Shown here: positions 1-9,398 of the stretch, piece after piece
How positions within the stretch are numbered: position 1 is the first letter of the stretch
Layout of the letters: the number at the start of each line of letters is the position of its first letter
Source: an uncultured archaeon
GTDB lineage: Archaea; Asgardarchaeota; Thorarchaeia; Thorarchaeales; Thorarchaeaceae
Length of the DNA: 11,162 nt
Direction: 5' to 3'
Assembly: GCA_964631415.1 (NCBI GenBank)
Contig: CAZVZC010000052.1
Span: forward strand, 1-11,162
Made by a program: the position numbers and the translations under genes
Notes under the pieces: model-generated
What the model saw: the letters and a program-made list of their open reading frames with translations, nothing else
Told to the model about the DNA's origin: nothing
The model's database searches: none

Positions 1-1
1 C

Positions 2-586
2 TCGTCGGTTTCTCAGATGGGGTATGTACTGTTTGCGCTAGGAGTGTTCACAACATTCGGCGTGTCAGGTGGGCTCTTCCATCTGATCAACCATGCATTC
101 TCCAAGGGTCTACTCTTCATGACGGCTGGTGTGGTGATACACCAGACAGAGCTCAGAGACATAACAAAGATGGGCGGCCTGTCCAACAAGATGCCAATCA
201 CTGCGTTCACTGCTGCGATAGGGGCGTTGAGCATAGCTGGAAGCCCTCCTCTTTCGGGATTCGCTAGTGAATGGATGATGTTTCTGGGTGGCTTCCAAGC
301 AGCCCTCCCTAGTGGAGCCGGTCTGGGTCGGCCCGAGTTCGCCGTCCTAGCTCTCTTGGCCGTCGCAAGCACAATCATCAGTGCAGGATACATGCTGAGG
401 TTCCTCTGGAAGGTCTTCTTGGGACCCACTCCTCAGGCCTTGGAAGAAGTCACCGAGGGGCCGAGGTCCATGACATACCCAATGATAGCACTCGGTGCGC
501 TGATTGTGCTGTTTGGTGTGTTTCCTGGGCTCGCCCTGACAGTCATCACGCCCATTGTCGAGGCCATCGCCAACATAATACCATGA
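2..586 (+). CDS. Antiporter-like proton-pumping subunit, NuoM-like/MrpD-type (5'-partial; extra, fourth pump subunit of the operon)
   Basis: The frame is open to the window edge (tcg tcg gtt tct cag atg = SSVSQMGY, the conserved [AY]SSxSQMGY motif). It also has NHAFSKGLLFMTAG, MGGLSNKMP and AGSPPLSGFASEW (TM12 Glu, as in NuoM). It ends after ...LFGVFP with no lateral helix, so it is not NuoL. Confidence 0.88.
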   Translation, partial: SSVSQMGYVLFALGVFTTFGVSGGLFHLINHAFSKGLLFMTAGVVIHQTELRDITKMGGLSNKMPITAFTAAIGALSIAGSPPLSGFASEWMMFLGGFQAALPSGAGLGRPEFAVLALLAVASTIISAGYMLRFLWKVFLGPTPQALEEVTEGPRSMTYPMIALGALIVLFGVFPGLALTVITPIVEAIANIIP

Positions 587-595: not shown

Positions 596-2827
596 ATGCT
601 GCTTGGACTACCCTACTATCTCATTGTCGTCATCCCACTGGTCGGTTCTCTCATTGTGCCGCTGGTCGGACGCTTCAACGAGAAGTTGCGGGACTGGACA
701 CCGGCCCTGTTCATGGGTGTAACGATGGTCCTCTGCTGGTCACTTCTGCTGGACCTTGGGAGCCCTCAGGGTCCCACGAGTTGGGTCTGGATTGAAACAC
801 TAGGTCTGCGTTTCGAAGTGCTGCTGGATCCTCTATCGGTCATCATGGCAGTCCTGTCCAGCACATTGTGTTTCCTAATCTACGTTTACAGCACTGAGTA
901 CATGGCTCACGAGGGTGACCGTGACAGGTTCTTCTTCCTGATGCTCGCGTTTGGAGGCGGCATGCTCACACTGGTCATCAGCAACAATCTGCTGATTGCT
1001 TTCATTGGATGGGAGATAATGGGCTTCTGTTCCTACGGCCTCATCGGCTTCTGGAACGACAGGAAGAATCCCCCTGAGAAGGAGCTGGATGGCAGCGAAT
1101 CCAGCAATCCCCTGCTTCAATTTGAAACGGAGGGTCAGTACAACACTCATTGCGGGACCAAGGCATTCATTGTCACAAGAGTCGGGGACGCTTTCATGCT
1201 GGGTGGAATCCTTCTGCTGTTCATGTTCACGGGTACCTTCTCCTTCTCCGAGATGGCGCAGAACGCTCAGAACTGGTGGCAGATTATGGCATCTGTGGGA
1301 TTGCTTGTCCCAACTCTTCTGTTAATCTTCATGGGGGCCATTGGCAAGTCCGGGCAGGTCCCACTTGACGTGTGGCTCCCTGAGGCGATGGCTGGACCCA
1401 CTCCGGTTTCTGCTCTCATCCACGCAGCAACGATGGTCAAAGCTGGTGTCTACATAAGTGCGAGATTCCTTGTCACTATGGCCGGCGCGGCGAGCACGGA
1501 TAACAGCGGGACTGGATGGATGCCGCTGCAACACACAGGACTCGAATTGGCCGCGCAGTTCTTCACAGTCGTCGCAGTCATCGGAGCGATTACGGCGCTT
1601 TTGACTGCCACTATGGGGATGGTTTCGAACGAGCTCAAGCAGGTTCTAGCTTTCTCTACGTTGAGTCAACTGGGCTACATGATGCTGGCCATAGGAACGG
1701 GCGGTCTTCTTGTCGAGTATGAGCCCGCGTACCTGAGCGGAATCCTACATGTGGTGAGTCACGGTGCTTTCAAGGCACTGCTCTTCTTGGCCGCAGGCGG
1801 TGTCATCCATGCCCTGCATACGAAATACATGAGCAAGATGGGCGGTCTCAAGAAGTACATGCCGAAAACGTTCATTGTGATGTGGATTGGAGTGCTCGCG
1901 CTGTCAGGCATACCTCCATTTTCGGGCTTCTGGTCAAAAGACTCCATCATTGAGTATTCGTATGAGCTGGCAATGCATCAGCCGCTAGGGGTCTTTCTCT
2001 TTGCTCTGGCCGTTCTCGCTGCAGCATGCACGATCTTCTACAGCTTGAGGCTCATGGGTATGACCTTCTATGGTCCCTATGGTGCCCAACATGTAGCTGA
2101 ACACAGTGAGCCTGCCGAGTCCTTAACCAGTGAACAGTCCGAGTCTGCTCATGATGAGGAGCATGAACACGAACACCCGCATGACCCCGGTCCTGCGATG
2201 ATGGTTCCTCTGTACATCTTAGCAGCCTTCACAGTGATAGCATTCGCAGTGTTCCCGCTGATTGAAGCAATCATTCTGAGCGAGGGTGGATTGAGTTTCG
2301 CGCTATGGGCCGAAACCCTTACTGAGATGGTCTTGGTCAAGATCACACTGCCCGGCGTCATTCCGTTCGCATTCACTTTGGGCGCTCTCGCCCTAGGTGG
2401 GATTCCGGGGTATGTGCTCTATATCAAGAGGGCAGATCGATCAAGGACTGCAGTCCCCGAAACTGGAGTCAGGAGGCGGCTGTACAGCTTCCTGAAGCAT
2501 CGGTGGTACATCAACGAATTCTACTACTGGATTGTTCGTAAGTTCATGAACTCTACAGAGTGGTGGCGCGTACGGGTGGACAACCGCATCATCGATGGGA
2601 TCGACTTCGGGTCCGCCCGGGCAGCTCTGTCAATGTCTTCGCGTGTAAGATGGTTTGATGACCATGTCATCGATGGTTTTGCTGAGAACGTGTCAACTGT
2701 CAGCGTGGCCGCATCTGAGTCGAGCCAAGCGATTCAGACAGGTCGGGTCAATGACTATGTGGCCGTCATCATCTTCGGAATAGGGATCCTGGTTATACTG
2801 ACCTTGGTGAGTTTGGGGGTGATATGA
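596..2827 (+). CDS. nuoL: NADH-quinone oxidoreductase / Fpo-like subunit L (743 aa) with extended lateral helix
   Basis: Motifs LDPLS, GWEIMG, KAFIVTRVGD, GKSGQVPLDVWLPEAMAGPTPVSALIHAATMVKAG, AFSTLSQLGYM, HGAFKALLFL, GFWSKD. The C-terminal lateral helix RWYINEFY...IDG...QTG is followed by one final TM and has no MrpB-like extension. Confidence 0.95.
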   Translation: MLLGLPYYLIVVIPLVGSLIVPLVGRFNEKLRDWTPALFMGVTMVLCWSLLLDLGSPQGPTSWVWIETLGLRFEVLLDPLSVIMAVLSSTLCFLIYVYSTEYMAHEGDRDRFFFLMLAFGGGMLTLVISNNLLIAFIGWEIMGFCSYGLIGFWNDRKNPPEKELDGSESSNPLLQFETEGQYNTHCGTKAFIVTRVGDAFMLGGILLLFMFTGTFSFSEMAQNAQNWWQIMASVGLLVPTLLLIFMGAIGKSGQVPLDVWLPEAMAGPTPVSALIHAATMVKAGVYISARFLVTMAGAASTDNSGTGWMPLQHTGLELAAQFFTVVAVIGAITALLTATMGMVSNELKQVLAFSTLSQLGYMMLAIGTGGLLVEYEPAYLSGILHVVSHGAFKALLFLAAGGVIHALHTKYMSKMGGLKKYMPKTFIVMWIGVLALSGIPPFSGFWSKDSIIEYSYELAMHQPLGVFLFALAVLAAACTIFYSLRLMGMTFYGPYGAQHVAEHSEPAESLTSEQSESAHDEEHEHEHPHDPGPAMMVPLYILAAFTVIAFAVFPLIEAIILSEGGLSFALWAETLTEMVLVKITLPGVIPFAFTLGALALGGIPGYVLYIKRADRSRTAVPETGVRRRLYSFLKHRWYINEFYYWIVRKFMNSTEWWRVRVDNRIIDGIDFGSARAALSMSSRVRWFDDHVIDGFAENVSTVSVAASESSQAIQTGRVNDYVAVIIFGIGILVILTLVSLGVI
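2579..2734 (+). repeat. Tandem 26-codon repeat in the NuoL amphipathic helix (two units, 2579-2656 and 2657-2734)
   Basis: DNRIIDG (codon 2579) and DDHVIDG (codon 2657) are 78 nt apart. The 10-mer TCATCGATGG recurs at 2589 and 2667. QTG follows exactly 26 codons after the second D. Confidence 0.8.
2815..2822 (+). promoter_or_regulatory. Ribosome-binding site GGGGGTGA for nuoM
   Basis: Ends 5 nt before GTG 2828, which directly follows the nuoL TGA (2825-2827). Confidence 0.65.
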
Positions 2828-4345
2828 GTGCAGTTCCCTATTGCGCAACAGTTCATTGACGGTCTTCCGCTTGGCATCCTGCCTCTGATGCTGGCTATCG
2901 TGCTCGGTTCTTCCGTGGTGGCGTACATCCTTGGAAAGCGAGCTGCACGAGCAGTATCCATCTTGGTCACAGCTATTGAGCTCGGGCTCTCGATTGTTCT
3001 GGCACTAGCCATTGACCCAAGCATTGAGATTTCGGATCCCAATGCCGGGATGACGTACATGTGGCAGTTCACGATGGGACGAATCACCGTGGACGAAACC
3101 GAAACCGTTCTGCAGATCCTCCTCGGTGTTGACGGCATCTCAGTCGTGATGGTTGTTCTATCCAACCTCGTTGTGTTCATTGCCGCACTGTGCTCGAATC
3201 ACATTCACAAGTCAGAGAGTCTATACTATGCGATCCTGCTACTTCTTCAGGCAGGACTCATCGGTGTCTTCGTTTCGGTCGACCTCATCGGCTTCTTCGT
3301 GTTCTGGGAGTCTGTCTTGATTCCCATGTTTTTCATCATTGGCCGGTGGGGCGAAGAAGGATGCCAGCATGCAGCCGTCAAGTTCCTCATTTACACTCAG
3401 CTAGGATCCGCAATCTTGCTGATCGGCATCTTCATACTGTATTTTGCCTCCGCACCGCACACATTCAACATGCTGGCTTTGCGGAGCGCTGGACTGCCCG
3501 TCAATGCTCAAATCGCCTTTGCTCTCACGGTCTTCGTGGGTGCAGGTGTCAAGCTACCCGTGTGGCCGTTGCACAACTGGCTCCCGTGGGCTCACGTTAA
3601 GGCACCCACGCCCGGGTCTGTCATCCTAGCAGGTATCCTCCTGAAGATGGGCGGCTACGGTTTCTTGCGGCTGGGTGTGTGGATGATCCCCGAAGGGTTT
3701 GCCCGGATTAGCATCCCCTTAGCTGCCCTCGCGGTTTTCACATGCATCTACGCTGCGCTGACTGCAATGGCTCAGACAGACCTCAAGAGCATGGTGGCCT
3801 ACACGTCGATCAATCACATGGCTTGGATTCTGCTGGCCGTCGCAGTTGGGACAAGTGTCGCGCTGCAAGGAGCGGTCTTCATGATGTTCTCGCACGGTGT
3901 GATAATATCTGTCATGTTCATTGTTGCGGGTCAGCTGAAGTACTCGGCGGGATCCAGAGAGATTCCGATGGTGCGAGGTCTCATGGCTGGTGCCCCCAGA
4001 TTGTCATCCGTGCTCATACTGGCATCTCTGGCAACGTTCGGTCTTCCGGGTTTCAGCGGTTTCATAGCTGAGGTACTGATTCTCTTTGGCTCGGTCAGAG
4101 TCTACATCTGGACTGCACTCATCACATTTGGTGTCTTCATCACGGTCGGCTATCTCCTATGGACACTCAACAGAATCGTGTTCAGTGACCCTGACCCCGA
4201 GAAGAAGGTCAGTGAAGCCCCATGGAGTGATCTTGTGGCTCCAGTCCTGATGCTTGTTCCTGTGGTATTGCTGGGCCTCTTGCCTGATCTGATCCTCAGC
4301 CTTGTGAAGCCGGTTGCCCTGTTCATAGTGGGAGGTGGTCCGTGA
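2828..4345 (+). CDS. nuoM: NADH-quinone oxidoreductase / Fpo-like subunit M (505 aa), canonical type
   Basis: Motifs LGVDGIS, DLIGFFVFWESVLIPMFFIIGRWG, VKLPVWPLHNWLPWAHVKAPTPGSVILAGILLKMGGYG, AYTSINHM, FSHG and GLPGFSGFIAE. All the conserved charged residues I can recognise are present. Confidence 0.95.
   Translation: MQFPIAQQFIDGLPLGILPLMLAIVLGSSVVAYILGKRAARAVSILVTAIELGLSIVLALAIDPSIEISDPNAGMTYMWQFTMGRITVDETETVLQILLGVDGISVVMVVLSNLVVFIAALCSNHIHKSESLYYAILLLLQAGLIGVFVSVDLIGFFVFWESVLIPMFFIIGRWGEEGCQHAAVKFLIYTQLGSAILLIGIFILYFASAPHTFNMLALRSAGLPVNAQIAFALTVFVGAGVKLPVWPLHNWLPWAHVKAPTPGSVILAGILLKMGGYGFLRLGVWMIPEGFARISIPLAALAVFTCIYAALTAMAQTDLKSMVAYTSINHMAWILLAVAVGTSVALQGAVFMMFSHGVIISVMFIVAGQLKYSAGSREIPMVRGLMAGAPRLSSVLILASLATFGLPGFSGFIAEVLILFGSVRVYIWTALITFGVFITVGYLLWTLNRIVFSDPDPEKKVSEAPWSDLVAPVLMLVPVVLLGLLPDLILSLVKPVALFIVGGGP
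4331..4337 (+). promoter_or_regulatory. Ribosome-binding site GGAGGTG for nuoN
   Basis: Precedes GTG 4342, which overlaps the nuoM stop (GTGA). An alternative ATG lies at 4348. Confidence 0.7.
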
Positions 4346-5847
4346 AGATGCTGCAGTTGGCTCCTTTCGCCGAATTCATCAGAATGCTCTTCAAGCCCCT
4401 TACAGACCTGCTCATGCAGTATGTACCTCTGGAGTGGGTAGGGTCTCTCCCTGCACTCACTCTCGTCGTTTTCTCGGTCCTCGCGCTAATCATTGGGATG
4501 CGCTACAATCCATTGTTGGTCAGCTTTGTGGGGGTGACCATTGCGACGGTCGAGATGATCGTCATCGACCCCACATCATCCTTCGGCGGTCTGTTCGTGA
4601 GAAACGCGTTCTCGGACTTCTTCATCTACATAATTCTCATAGTCGGCTTTCTCGTGCTGATGTCTTCCACACTGTGGGCTGGCGAGCGCGGAACGTACAA
4701 CTTCCTTCTACTGGTATCCTTCGCTGGTGCCATATGGGTCGTCATGGCAACCGACCTTGTCGCGCTGTTCATCTCTTGGGAAGTGATGTCCACTCCAACC
4801 TATGTACTTGCAGCGCTCGGTCCCAACCGCGGTGCTGTGGATGGTGCGACGAAGTACTTCGTCATGGGACTACTTGCCACCATGTTGATGATATTTGGGA
4901 TTGCTCTGGTCTATGGTGTGACAGGCGAAACCGACCTCTCCGCGGTGGCCACGGTTGTCGAGTCTGTCTGGGTTTCGGGGCCCAGTGCGTCGCCTGCGGC
5001 CTACACTCTCATGCTGGCAATGATCCTGTTCGTGTTCTCCTTTGGCTTCAAGGTTGGCATATTTCCCGGATGGATGTGGGTCCCTGACACCTACTCAACG
5101 GCCGATGGGAGCGTCACCTCCTATCTGGCTGGTGCCACAAAGAAGGCTGGAGTCAGTGCGCTCATACGGATCCTCATGGTCGCATTCATAGTGGCCAGGC
5201 TGGAGTGGGGTTTTCTGATCGCCATTGTTTCAGCCCTGACCATGTTGATAGGAAACGTGCTGGCGCTAGCTCAGCGGAACATCATGCGTATGCTGGCTTA
5301 CTCAAGCATAGCCATGATGGGGTATCTGCTGATGGGAATCGCTGCTGGTACACAGTTCGGAGCGGCTGCAGCGATGTTCCATGCATTCACTCATGCTCTC
5401 ATGAAGTCTGCAGCCTTCATTCTGATATGGGCCATTTCAGTCCGAATGGCCAAGGAAATCACATATGACGATTTAGCAGGACTGAGTCAGAGGGCGCCAT
5501 TCGCATCGGCGATGTTGGGTATACTCGTCACGGCCCTGATGGCAGTGCCTATTCCTCCGACCGTGACATTCTGGTCCAAATTGTTCCTCTTTCAGAGCGC
5601 ATGGGACGTCGGACTGTGGTGGCTTGTCCTCTTCGGGCTCATGAACACGGTTCTCTCATGGGGGTACTATGTCAGAGTCTTGAAGTACTGCTACATGGTC
5701 GAGCCGAAGGATACCACGAAGCTGGTTCTCGCAAGGACTCCCATGCTTGCTGTGGCACTCTGTGTGGCTTCCATAATGTTGCTCTTCTTCAACTCGGATG
5801 TCATATTCCAATATGCGTTCGAGGCGGCCACGGGGATCATCCCATGA
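4342..5847 (+). CDS. nuoN: NADH-quinone oxidoreductase / Fpo-like subunit N (501 aa)
   Basis: Motifs DLVALFISWEVMSTPTYVLA, GATKYFVMG, FKVGIFPGWMWVPDTY, TKKAG, MRMLAYSSIAMMGY, PPTVTFWSK and GYYVRV. The exact start is uncertain (4342, 4348 or later). Confidence 0.93.
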   Translation: MKMLQLAPFAEFIRMLFKPLTDLLMQYVPLEWVGSLPALTLVVFSVLALIIGMRYNPLLVSFVGVTIATVEMIVIDPTSSFGGLFVRNAFSDFFIYIILIVGFLVLMSSTLWAGERGTYNFLLLVSFAGAIWVVMATDLVALFISWEVMSTPTYVLAALGPNRGAVDGATKYFVMGLLATMLMIFGIALVYGVTGETDLSAVATVVESVWVSGPSASPAAYTLMLAMILFVFSFGFKVGIFPGWMWVPDTYSTADGSVTSYLAGATKKAGVSALIRILMVAFIVARLEWGFLIAIVSALTMLIGNVLALAQRNIMRMLAYSSIAMMGYLLMGIAAGTQFGAAAAMFHAFTHALMKSAAFILIWAISVRMAKEITYDDLAGLSQRAPFASAMLGILVTALMAVPIPPTVTFWSKLFLFQSAWDVGLWWLVLFGLMNTVLSWGYYVRVLKYCYMVEPKDTTKLVLARTPMLAVALCVASIMLLFFNSDVIFQYAFEAATGIIP

Positions 5848-6331: not shown

Positions 6332-7603
6332 ATGAGGACATATGGACCGGGAGTATGCTTTCTGCTGGTGTGTCTACTTGTACCGATGAGTGCGTGCGGT
6401 GTAGGTTTTGCGGCTGCTGCAGATGAATCCACACGCGCCATCGTTGAGATCCAAGGTCATAGAATCGACTCTGTGACAATGACATGTGCCAACGATGTGA
6501 CAGGCGAAGTCACTCTCAAACCAACGGCCGAGCACACTCTGGATGTCAGTGTAGTATTTCAGACCAGTAGCGGGATTGCTGAGAAGCATGTTTGTGGTGT
6601 ATCGCCAATAAGGGAAACCACCAAGTCCGACGAAGGTCTTGAATTCGTCAAGATTGATGTGAGCTCATACCGAGACGGGTTATTCGTTGACATCCGGCTG
6701 CTTGCGAACGGATCGGCCATGGTTTATGTCGCTGCTGACATCGATGATACTCAATACTCTGCGCTTGGTCTTCTCAGTAGGCCATTGACTGTGCCTGCTG
6801 TAGAAACCAGACTGGAGGATGTCAAAGATGCCTTGGCCATCAGGCTCCTCAAAGAGGAACGTGTTCCGTCAACGTCAGCAGTGGTGATTTACAATGACAG
6901 ACAGAAACCATTACCGAATGGCCCCAGCTGTTATGACCCACTATACGTGCCGAGCGGTCCTAGGGTGTACTGCTTAGTGCATGAAGTGTTCTTTGACGAT
7001 AACAACAGCGTACCAGAGCAAGTTGGCGCTTGGTGTGTTAGCTACAGCTGGGTGGACTACTCTGTCTACCGCGAAGATGTGTCAGAGGCCCAGATAAAGA
7101 GCGACCTCCAGTTCTACAACAAAAAGCACTACACGATTGACACACGATCAAGGATAGTGGGTGCCTATGAGATTGACATACACGGTGATGTTGATACAGA
7201 TGAACCAGATCGCCCTCTTATGACATTTGACGGCGGCTGGCTCTATCCGTCAGAGGTCGAGAGCCTGTGGGGGCCCTATTCCCAAGACTACTACATCAGG
7301 CCGGACAATACAATAATGCTCGCATCAGCCTGTCAGAGCCTCTGGAACTCCGGTGAAACGAGCGGTTCTGAGATGGGCGATGTGTTCATCAACTACGGCG
7401 CAACAGCATACGTTGGTTCAACTGTGAATCTGCCAATAGTCATGGATGACTGGACCGAGGAGTTCTGGTGGTCGTTGAGCTATCAGGACCAGACGATCTC
7501 TGATGCCATATCAGACGCGAACCTAGCAATGGGGTGGGCACGGACGTCAACGTACATCCAGGTATACCTTTCAAGCTATGGCACTAGGAGGCTACCCAAC
7601 TGA
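6332..7603 (+). CDS. Secreted protein with C-terminal caspase-hemoglobinase-fold (clan CD; CHAT/C25-like) cysteine peptidase domain (423 aa)
   Basis: Hydrophobic N-terminal signal ending ...GFAAAA. EIDIHGD gives His284-Gly285 and IMLASACQS gives Cys334. These are followed by MGDVFINYGATAYVGS and WTEEFWWSL...TISDAISDAN, the typical post-catalytic pattern of CHAT/gingipain-like domains. Confidence 0.78.
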   Translation: MRTYGPGVCFLLVCLLVPMSACGVGFAAAADESTRAIVEIQGHRIDSVTMTCANDVTGEVTLKPTAEHTLDVSVVFQTSSGIAEKHVCGVSPIRETTKSDEGLEFVKIDVSSYRDGLFVDIRLLANGSAMVYVAADIDDTQYSALGLLSRPLTVPAVETRLEDVKDALAIRLLKEERVPSTSAVVIYNDRQKPLPNGPSCYDPLYVPSGPRVYCLVHEVFFDDNNSVPEQVGAWCVSYSWVDYSVYREDVSEAQIKSDLQFYNKKHYTIDTRSRIVGAYEIDIHGDVDTDEPDRPLMTFDGGWLYPSEVESLWGPYSQDYYIRPDNTIMLASACQSLWNSGETSGSEMGDVFINYGATAYVGSTVNLPIVMDDWTEEFWWSLSYQDQTISDAISDANLAMGWARTSTYIQVYLSSYGTRRLPN

Positions 7604-7608
7604 AGACG

Positions 7609-8172
7609 GTGCACCTCATCGCAGCAGTAATCACATACATCTTGTTACTTGGGTGTACTTCTCAGGCGGTGGCAGCGAGCTCTGATTCCTCAACATTCTC
7701 TGATGAAGCAGCAATCCTTAGCCTGGGCGCTCCTGAGTCGTTCTCCATGACTGAAGGCTTTGTGGTCACGATAGCTGTCGTCGTCACAAACACTGGACTC
7801 AGCATGCTGAATGTGACTGTGGTAGTGGAACAGGATCGCTCTCCTCATGAGATAGTTCTGGCCGAACCTGCTCCTGTCAAGCCCGTCGATGCAGGCTCTG
7901 AGGCGGAGCTGATGCTCAGATTCAGGGCAGTCGTGGAGGACTCTCTGTTGAACAGCTCACTCCTGACGACTCATGTATCGACTGCCATCTTCCTCAGGGC
8001 AGTTTCGATTGACTTCTTGGCTGCCTCACCACAGAAGACCGTGATTGTTGACATAAGTGTCGTAAGAGCTTCTCAGCTCGTCGTTGGCGGTTTCGTCCTT
8101 GCTGTCGCAGCCATACTGATAGCTGTTATCGCTCGCAGTCGAGTAGGATGGATAGGCCTGCACAAGAAGTAA
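7609..8172 (+). CDS. Type I membrane-anchored surface protein with Ig-like (CARDB-like) domain (187 aa)
   Basis: GTG starts 5 nt after the protease stop. It has an N-terminal hydrophobic signal (LLLGC / AVA-A), a beta-rich core with VVVTNTG...LNVTV, and a C-terminal TM LVVGGFVLAVAAILIAVIA followed by a basic tail RSR...KK. Confidence 0.7.
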   Translation: MHLIAAVITYILLLGCTSQAVAASSDSSTFSDEAAILSLGAPESFSMTEGFVVTIAVVVTNTGLSMLNVTVVVEQDRSPHEIVLAEPAPVKPVDAGSEAELMLRFRAVVEDSLLNSSLLTTHVSTAIFLRAVSIDFLAASPQKTVIVDISVVRASQLVVGGFVLAVAAILIAVIARSRVGWIGLHKK

Positions 8173-8951: not shown

Positions 8952-9398
8952 ATGAGTTTTCTTGGCAAGCTTAAGGCCCCGAACGCGACGATAGCAGTGC
9001 TGCTTGACAAGGGTACGTCTAGCCTCAAAGAGCCGCTTCAAGGCAAGCTCGACGTTTCCTCGTCAGAGGAATTCGACGCCACTGAACTGCGTATTGAGAT
9101 TTGGGTCAACGAATGGACGAAAGCCACTGAACAAAAAAAGGTTGGACAGCAGACAGTCCCCGTAACCGCCGAACAAAAAAGCGTGCTGCACCAGAGTAAG
9201 AATACAGTAGCAGGAGGACGGCACTTCACGAGCGGCTTCAGGGATAGCATTCCCTTCAGCATCTCCTTACCGTCGAACGTGCCCCCGACCTATCACAGCC
9301 AGAACGCCCGCAACACTTGGATGTTGAAAGGCGTGATTGGCGTCAAAGGTCGGCCCGACGTGACCAGCCACGACATGGAAGTCGTCATCACCTACTAA
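8952..9398 (+). CDS. Single-domain arrestin N-domain / SpoOM-like protein (148 aa)
   Basis: The pattern IAVLLDK...EPLQGKLDVSSSEEFDATELRIEIWVNE...PFSISLPSNVPPTYHSQNARNTWMLKGVIGVKGRPD resembles the arrestin_N/SpoOM beta-sandwich consensus (F.F.LP..LPPS....G.I.Y.LKA). No signal peptide or TM; good RBS. Confidence 0.8.
   Translation: MSFLGKLKAPNATIAVLLDKGTSSLKEPLQGKLDVSSSEEFDATELRIEIWVNEWTKATEQKKVGQQTVPVTAEQKSVLHQSKNTVAGGRHFTSGFRDSIPFSISLPSNVPPTYHSQNARNTWMLKGVIGVKGRPDVTSHDMEVVITY

Follow-up and report, generated by a model that had tools for sequence, protein, structure and literature searches.

Complex I of the '2M' type, first described by Chadwick, Hemp, Fischer & Orphan (2018), is characterized in the papers that cite this work (PMC6606698, PMC9040806, bioRxiv 10.1101/2021.05.03.442362) by a second NuoM subunit and a helix insertion of ~26 amino acids (aa). 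As far as these papers relate, archaeal examples have already been reported from ammonia-oxidising Nitrososphaerales and from Ca. Angelarchaeales. Here we analysed a window of 11,162 nucleotides (nt) at the beginning of contig C52 (CAZVZC010000052.1) in an 85%-complete genome (GCA_964631415.1) of an uncultured archaeon of the Asgard class Thorarchaeia (hereafter Thor). The window harbors four consecutive antiporter-like genes, namely the 3' end of a NuoM-type gene (M2), nuoL, nuoM, and nuoN, and its nuoL encodes a lateral helix that is longer than that of three-pump enzymes. The Thor complex I-like enzyme likely follows the published 2M design, with M2, L, M, and N as its antiporter-like subunits and a lateral helix lengthened by one module.

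The lateral helix of NuoL carries a doubled motif

The nuoL gene (596..2827, + strand) encodes a protein of 743 aa that matches PF00361 and PF00662, has NdhF/NuoL/ND5 chains as its best sequence matches in the Protein Data Bank, and scores 482.3 bits with NCBIfam model TIGR01974 (NDH_I_L), passing the cut-off of 407.5. Assignment to FpoL of F420H2 dehydrogenase (NF040617) failed with 312.7 bits at a cut-off of 1050. The closest public NuoL (93% identity) derives from a metagenome-assembled genome (MAG) of Candidatus Thorarchaeota and the other close matches are nearly all from Thorarchaeota.

The lateral helix region extends from W637 to G716 (WY to QTG, 80 aa; 2504..2743, + strand), as delineated by MAFFT alignment, span classes, and AlphaFold2, and has a length of two 26-aa modules. 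The first motif copy is DNRIIDG (aa 662–668; 2579..2599, + strand), the second is DDHVIDG (aa 688–694; 2657..2677, + strand), and the two are offset by 26 aa or 78 nt. The 10-nt run TCATCGATGG starts at position 2589 and again at 2667. Downstream, the TM16 anchor helix of NuoL was recognized in the AlphaFold2 secondary structure (aa 717–739; 2744..2812, + strand; TM, transmembrane helix). An earlier note on this DNA had reported the two D-x-x-x-I-D-G motifs 78 nt apart, the repeated 10-nt run, and the 80-aa span, and all of these coordinates were confirmed.

The same note spoke of an exact 26-residue duplication, which holds for the spacing of exactly 26 aa but not for the sequence, in which ~8 residues per module still match. 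The doubling is exact in spacing only and is old and diverged in sequence. When the single window sequence was matched against itself, the best offset was 26, with p = 0.16 over all offsets (not significant) and p = 0.003 at the pre-specified offset of 26. In a profile of 43 distinct helix sequences of Thor orthologues, offset 26 scored 27.6 versus a column-shuffle maximum of 15.3 ± 2.9 (p about 0.003), and the similarity was restricted to eight residues (DNKIIDGI versus DDNVVDGF). The two 78-nt units share 30/78 positions (null 20.9 ± 4.0). Outside the 10-nt run, their identity is 29% versus 27% in the null, and the run holds all of the excess. At synonymous positions, the two motif copies vary freely across 53 orthologous loci, and the 93%-identical orthologue already has just 8/12 matches. 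Because the orthologues vary freely at synonymous sites, the 10-nt run represents a chance agreement of codon choice rather than a relic of duplication, and the residual nucleotide identity that had been claimed could not be upheld.

Net insertion and predicted length of the helix

The net insertion of ~26 aa expected relative to three-pump NuoL was found on alignment and takes the shape of a module doubling. When 38 NuoL proteins of related genomes were aligned with MAFFT, the window NuoL, 16 same-family orthologues, and the NuoL of genome G025 had 26 extra residues compared to NuoL of K-L-M-N operons. The span between the conserved W and G is 80 aa here versus 52–56 aa in the three-pump NuoL proteins that related Asgard genomes encode. 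In HMMER alignments, residues 598–612 of cyanobacterial NdhF (6hum_F) align twice, with query residues 655–669 and 681–695, and chloroplast NdhF (7eu3_F) aligns with a gap of 26 residues, which together are, at the level of sequence, what is classically seen when a segment has been doubled.

AlphaFold2, run on the window NuoL as a single chain with a 33-sequence alignment, predicted a single low-confidence helix of 71 residues (aa 637–707), followed by the TM16 anchor, as compared to 48 residues in L063, a three-pump paralogue from a family member. Structure prediction thus agreed with the proposed lengthening of the helix, and the predicted extra length of 23–26 residues corresponds to about 35–39 Å. 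The helix is moderately amphipathic by hydrophobic moment (µH 0.2–0.38, mean hydrophobicity about 0) with a drifting phase, which did not tell the alternative readings apart. The model also has an acidic, His-rich loop at aa 499–531 (window 2090–2188; HDEEHEHEHPHD and neighbouring residues) between the antiporter core and TM15, predicted with very low confidence, and a second lineage-specific loop at aa about 155–185.

M2 as a fourth antiporter-like subunit

The 3' part of M2 (last 194 codons; 1..586, + strand) is a NuoM-type fourth antiporter-like gene with a PF00361 match. Its 5' part is at the terminus of contig C71 of the same genome (L008:3992–4972). The last 28 bp of C71 (L008:4945–4972) are identical to the first 28 bp of the window, and the reading frame joined over this overlap is open and encodes 512 aa. 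Model TIGR01972 (NDH_I_M) is the best NCBIfam match of the N-terminal piece and is among the top matches of the C-terminal piece. In a tree of 58 antiporter-like subunits, M2 falls inside the M clade near M subunits from operons with three pumps. Downstream of nuoL, nuoM (505 aa; 2828..4345, + strand) also encodes an M-type subunit, which is divergent with a long branch and scores 415 bits with TIGR01972, above the cut-off. The two M-type subunits of the Thor operon thus belong to different M lineages. Both contain the M-specific TM12 Glu, and M2 also keeps the TM5 Glu and the TM7 Lys. The following nuoN (501 aa; 4342..5847, + strand) has TIGR01770 as its best match, with 270 bits below the cut-off of 332.6, and groups in the N clade of the tree. 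The assembly break inside nuoM2 is located at the conserved AYSSVSQMGY stretch, and the Thor MAG contigs L076, L079, L094, L098, and L108 likewise start within nuoM2.

Upstream of M2, contig C71 encodes nuoJ (partial), K, C, D, H, and I, which gives the operon order J-K-C-D-H-I-M2-L-M-N across the joined contigs. The cluster is devoid of NuoEFG genes, and the enzyme lacks the NADH module. Of the remaining core subunits, C, D, H, I, J, and K are thus encoded on C71 and B, as a fusion, on contig C20 of the same genome, and nuoA was located in the same-genus orthologue G001, where it lies upstream together with a NuoB-domain fusion.

Helix span and pump number in Asgard operons

All long-type NuoL in the family (17/17 orthologues) are encoded in the same ten-gene order with M2. 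M2 adjoins L in every further Thor locus that has upstream sequence, and the gap between M2 and the two-module nuoL is 9 nt in every orthologue. Two further genomes have this operon together with an 80-aa span, namely G025, which is from another family of the same order, and G048, whose NuoL carries the NCBI label Heimdallarchaeota.

In the sampled Asgard operons, the span of the helix rises with the number of pumps, with exceptions. Operons with two antiporter genes have a span of 27–28 aa (L065, L139), those with three a span of 52–56 aa (about 30 operons), those with four a span of 80 aa (Thor, G025, G048), and the single operon with five, one of them frameshifted, a span of 108 aa (L131). 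This last operon (G053:C151) has the order C-D-H-I-K-M-M-L-M-N with the frameshift in the first M and three motif copies in its helix. The core of its NuoL is nearly identical to that of L129 (G078:C78), a three-pump member of the same family with a 55-aa helix. L127 and L128 (family f21), which encode an 82-aa two-module helix in an L gene next to one M gene, were considered as a counter-example and rejected: the two genes form an isolated pair that is uninformative on pump number, with unrelated neighbours encoding a Glu/Gln-tRNA synthetase, a Ras-family GTPase, and a thermosome subunit, and with no other nuo genes within 18 kb.

Modular helices among distant homologues

We extended the comparison to 167 NuoL homologues, comprising 150 representatives of 50%-identity clusters and the Asgard loci. 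Their W-to-G spans are quantised in steps of about 28, 54, 80, and 106 aa, with six sequences at 27–28 aa, 65 at 51–57 aa, about 81 at 79–85 aa, and eight at 105–108 aa. The best self-offset of the two-module homologues is 25–27 in 70/82 and exactly 26 in 60/82, while one-module sequences have no preferred self-offset. Neighbouring modules are near-identical in P0027, P0041, P0103, and P0131, which shows that tandem duplication of the 26-aa unit is real and recurrent. The self-match scores of P0027 and P0041 are 115 and 147, i.e., these are recent tandem duplications. The Thor module pair is among the most diverged.

Two modules as a putative scaffold for four pumps

From these observations we propose that the lateral helix of NuoL is built of 26-residue modules, each with an h-D-x-x-h-h-D-G kink motif (h, hydrophobic residue), of which the Thor protein has two instead of one. 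The extra module would have arisen by in-frame tandem duplication of 78 nt. The D-G motif would be the kink at which the helix contacts a pump, and the second motif may dock the second M-type subunit, such that the helix would strap four pumps and not three. In Escherichia coli NuoL, residues P564-L565-N566 form a helix kink and are those nearest to NuoM, and their replacement makes the enzyme fragile (PMC3274701). In an alignment of the C-termini, these residues correspond to V691-I692-D693 in motif copy 2, and the kink and the QTG/ENG landmark are equally far apart, to within one residue, in the E. coli and the window NuoL. We read the D-G motif as a pump-contact kink because the NuoM-contact kink of E. 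coli aligns with motif copy 2. The two Thor modules are dissimilar outside of eight residues, and tandem duplication in the Thor lineage is therefore inferred from the pattern among homologues.

Several observations weigh against the four-pump reading of the Thor helix and operon. The two modules in the window are no longer similar beyond ~8 residues each. The predicted helix is of low confidence in both models (predicted local distance difference test, pLDDT, about 40–60), which is expected because the strap helix was folded without its partners. The alignment to E. coli NuoL covers a short, divergent stretch. M2 (L008:3992–4972 and window 29–586) has a Glu (AMIETGA) at the position of the E. 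coli NuoM TM8 Lys265, at which the downstream NuoM keeps the Lys. Among the Asgard operons, those of family f12 (L062, L134, L144; order K-M-L-M-N) have a 108-aa helix with three motif copies and yet four pump genes. A genome-wide search recovered no fifth PF00361 gene in G073 (88% complete) and one orphan in G035. Finally, a metagenome scan with an alignment of bacterial two-module NuoL, for which loci with at least 1.5 kb upstream and at least 4.5 kb downstream were kept, yielded 12 two-module loci, of which one has two pumps, nine have three (L-M-N only), and two have four, so two modules are not specific for four pumps. All of the about 15 one-module bacterial loci have three pumps, with none having two or four. 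The locus L122 (Rickettsiales) turned out to be a canonical one-module L-M-N operon.

The bacterial two-module loci with L-M-N only and the f12 operons would also fit a longer helix that is unrelated to the fourth pump, i.e., one inherited from a two-module NuoL lineage with M2 having been added to it or acting independently, and so would Complex_I_1 and Complex_I_2 of Ca. Manganitrophaceae, which have the insertion without extra subunits (PMC9040806). We nevertheless consider such a decoupling of helix and pump unlikely, given that span and pump number move together from two to five pumps in the sampled Asgard operons, that a one-module NuoL in a four-pump operon was encountered in 0 of the ~15 bacterial one-module loci and 0 of the ~30 Asgard three-pump operons, and that M2 and the two-module L are adjacent at the same 9-nt distance in every orthologue. 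Two modules seem to be a requirement for four pumps but fall well short of guaranteeing them, in agreement with Yu et al. (2022), who found the insertion also in complexes without extra subunits. The co-occurrence of the repeat with a fourth pump gene that had been predicted thus holds for all Thor orthologues and two other Asgard lineages but breaks down in distant homologues. The helix can also not serve as physical evidence that the extra subunit is incorporated, as the earlier note had it, because two-module helices are common in bacterial L-M-N operons and some Asgard operons combine three modules with four pumps. The four-pump reading of the Thor operon instead draws on the combination of the helix, the adjacent and conserved M2, and the Asgard series.

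How the second module arose allows for a different course of events, in which the second motif resulted from convergence, with each pump contact needing a kink motif, or from recombination with another nuoL. The modest match of ~8/26 residues per module in the window NuoL would fit this, as would the motifs themselves, with copy 1 resembling the I-D-R-F-N-Y type that three-pump NuoL of Asgard archaea have as their only motif and copy 2 being nearer to the bacterial V-D-G-x-V-N type. The NuoL proteins L131 and L129, with five and three pumps and helices that differ by two modules on nearly identical cores, likewise suggest recombination. However, increments that are quantised at 26–27 aa, a best self-offset of 26 in 60 of the 82 two-module homologues, and near-identical adjacent modules that testify to recent tandem duplication of the unit in several homologues argue for tandem duplication and render convergence or recombination improbable as the source of the second motif.

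Origin of the doubling

The earlier note had further suggested that the four-pump architecture arose independently in the Thor lineage. Several independent origins of 2M complexes have been reported (Chadwick 2018, as cited in PMC6606698 and PMC9040806), and in a FastTree phylogeny of NuoL cores (helix columns excluded; 182 tips) helix class changes at least 38 times, both of which would be compatible with a separate Thor origin. The same tree, however, contains a clade of 13 sequences that are all two-module (support 0.97) and include Thor, G048/P0007, G025, P0008, P0010, P0011 (labelled Asgardarchaeia), and P0025. The identical operon order and two-module helix recur in G048 and G025, and the four-pump operons of Thor, G025, and G035 have M subunits that are monophyletic in the antiporter tree, as are their N subunits. 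The all-two-module clade and the monophyly of M and N place the doubling before Thor; it predates the divergence between Thor and other Asgard lineages and is not private to Thor. The same helix and operon in the Heimdall-labelled genome and in G025, in one clade with Thor, contradict the suggestion, and we regard an independent Thor origin as very unlikely. For polarising individual gains and losses of modules the NuoL-core tree is unfit because class changes are too frequent and the L131 and L129 cores clash with their helices. These near-identical cores with different helices instead suggest recombination or gene conversion between nuoL genes.

A broader generalization, to which we give slightly less than even chances, is that the lateral helix acts as a modular ruler, composed of a 28-residue base and n modules of 26–27 residues with a pump-contact kink motif, and that recurrent in-frame tandem duplication and loss of modules together with recombination among nuoL paralogues set the stage for gain and loss of pumps. 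If so, Asgard archaea alone would hold complexes of two, three, four, and five pumps, and three-pump enzymes with two modules would be pre-adapted or have an undiscovered partner under the extra helix.

Further features of the cluster and window

NuoB (PF01058) is encoded as the C-terminal part of a 616-aa fusion on contig C20 of the same genome (L123:55–1905; orthologue L039:3–1028), the N-terminal part of which is a FAD_binding_4 and FAD-oxidase_C module as in D-lactate/glycolate dehydrogenases. The cluster of G001 has this fusion together with nuoA, which follows ~1.8 kb further downstream. The FAD-oxidase/NuoB fusion may be an unusual electron-input module for the complex. A group 4 membrane-bound [NiFe] hydrogenase was considered and dismissed. 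The NuoD homologue (L008:1299–2435) is without the N-terminal CxxC and the C-terminal cysteine pair, and its best models are NuoD/FpoD; lacking the nickel-iron cysteine motifs, it is of the complex I type and not a hydrogenase subunit. In the remainder of the window, a 148-aa open reading frame (ORF; 8952–9398) resembles Arrestin_N (E = 0.0014) and Spo0M of Pfam weakly and below threshold, and two further ORFs (6332–7603 and 7609–8172) have no Pfam match.

Significance and comparison with known complexes

In the literature searched, in which Chadwick 2018 was represented by the papers citing it, we found no 2M complex named in Thorarchaeota, and one survey of Asgard archaea discusses membrane arms that are shorter, not longer. 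The enzyme described here would extend the occurrence of four-pump complex I-like enzymes to Thorarchaeota and related Asgard lineages. It is thereby relevant to energy conservation in Asgard anaerobes, which are relatives of the eukaryotic host lineage, and a higher H+/e- ratio would ease reverse electron flow to ferredoxin. For annotation, the clean 26-residue steps come with the caution that a two-module helix alone is no proof of a fourth pump.

The literature already covers 2M complexes, including archaeal ones, the 26-aa insertion in the helix, and a relative with five pumps, and the Thor enzyme is a clear new example of the 2M design and not a new kind of machine. As far as 2M complex I is portrayed in the citing papers, it shares with the Thor operon the second NuoM-type subunit, a NuoL helix longer by ~26 aa, and a cluster without NuoEFG. 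It has its M genes in tandem (M-M), whereas M2 is upstream of L in the Thor operon, and, judged from the same papers, the Thor enzyme further differs in its Asgard host, in M-type subunits that are of different M lineages, and in the fusion of NuoB to a FAD-oxidase domain. The five-pump Complex_I_3 of Ca. Manganitrophaceae (Yu et al. 2022, PMC9040806) resembles the Thor enzyme in combining the 26-aa helix insertion with an added pump, but NuoL is replaced there by two MrpD-like subunits to give five pumps, as opposed to a single NuoL and four pumps in Thor. Canonical NuoL/Nqo12/NdhF proteins of solved complex I and NDH-1 structures (e.g., 3rko_L, 4he8_L, 6hum_F) share with Thor NuoL the antiporter core, TM15, the lateral helix, and the TM16 anchor. 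They have a single kink motif at the NuoM contact and one module in a span of about 52–56 aa, compared to two modules in 80 aa in Thor NuoL, which in addition has the extra loops at aa about 155–185 and 499–531.

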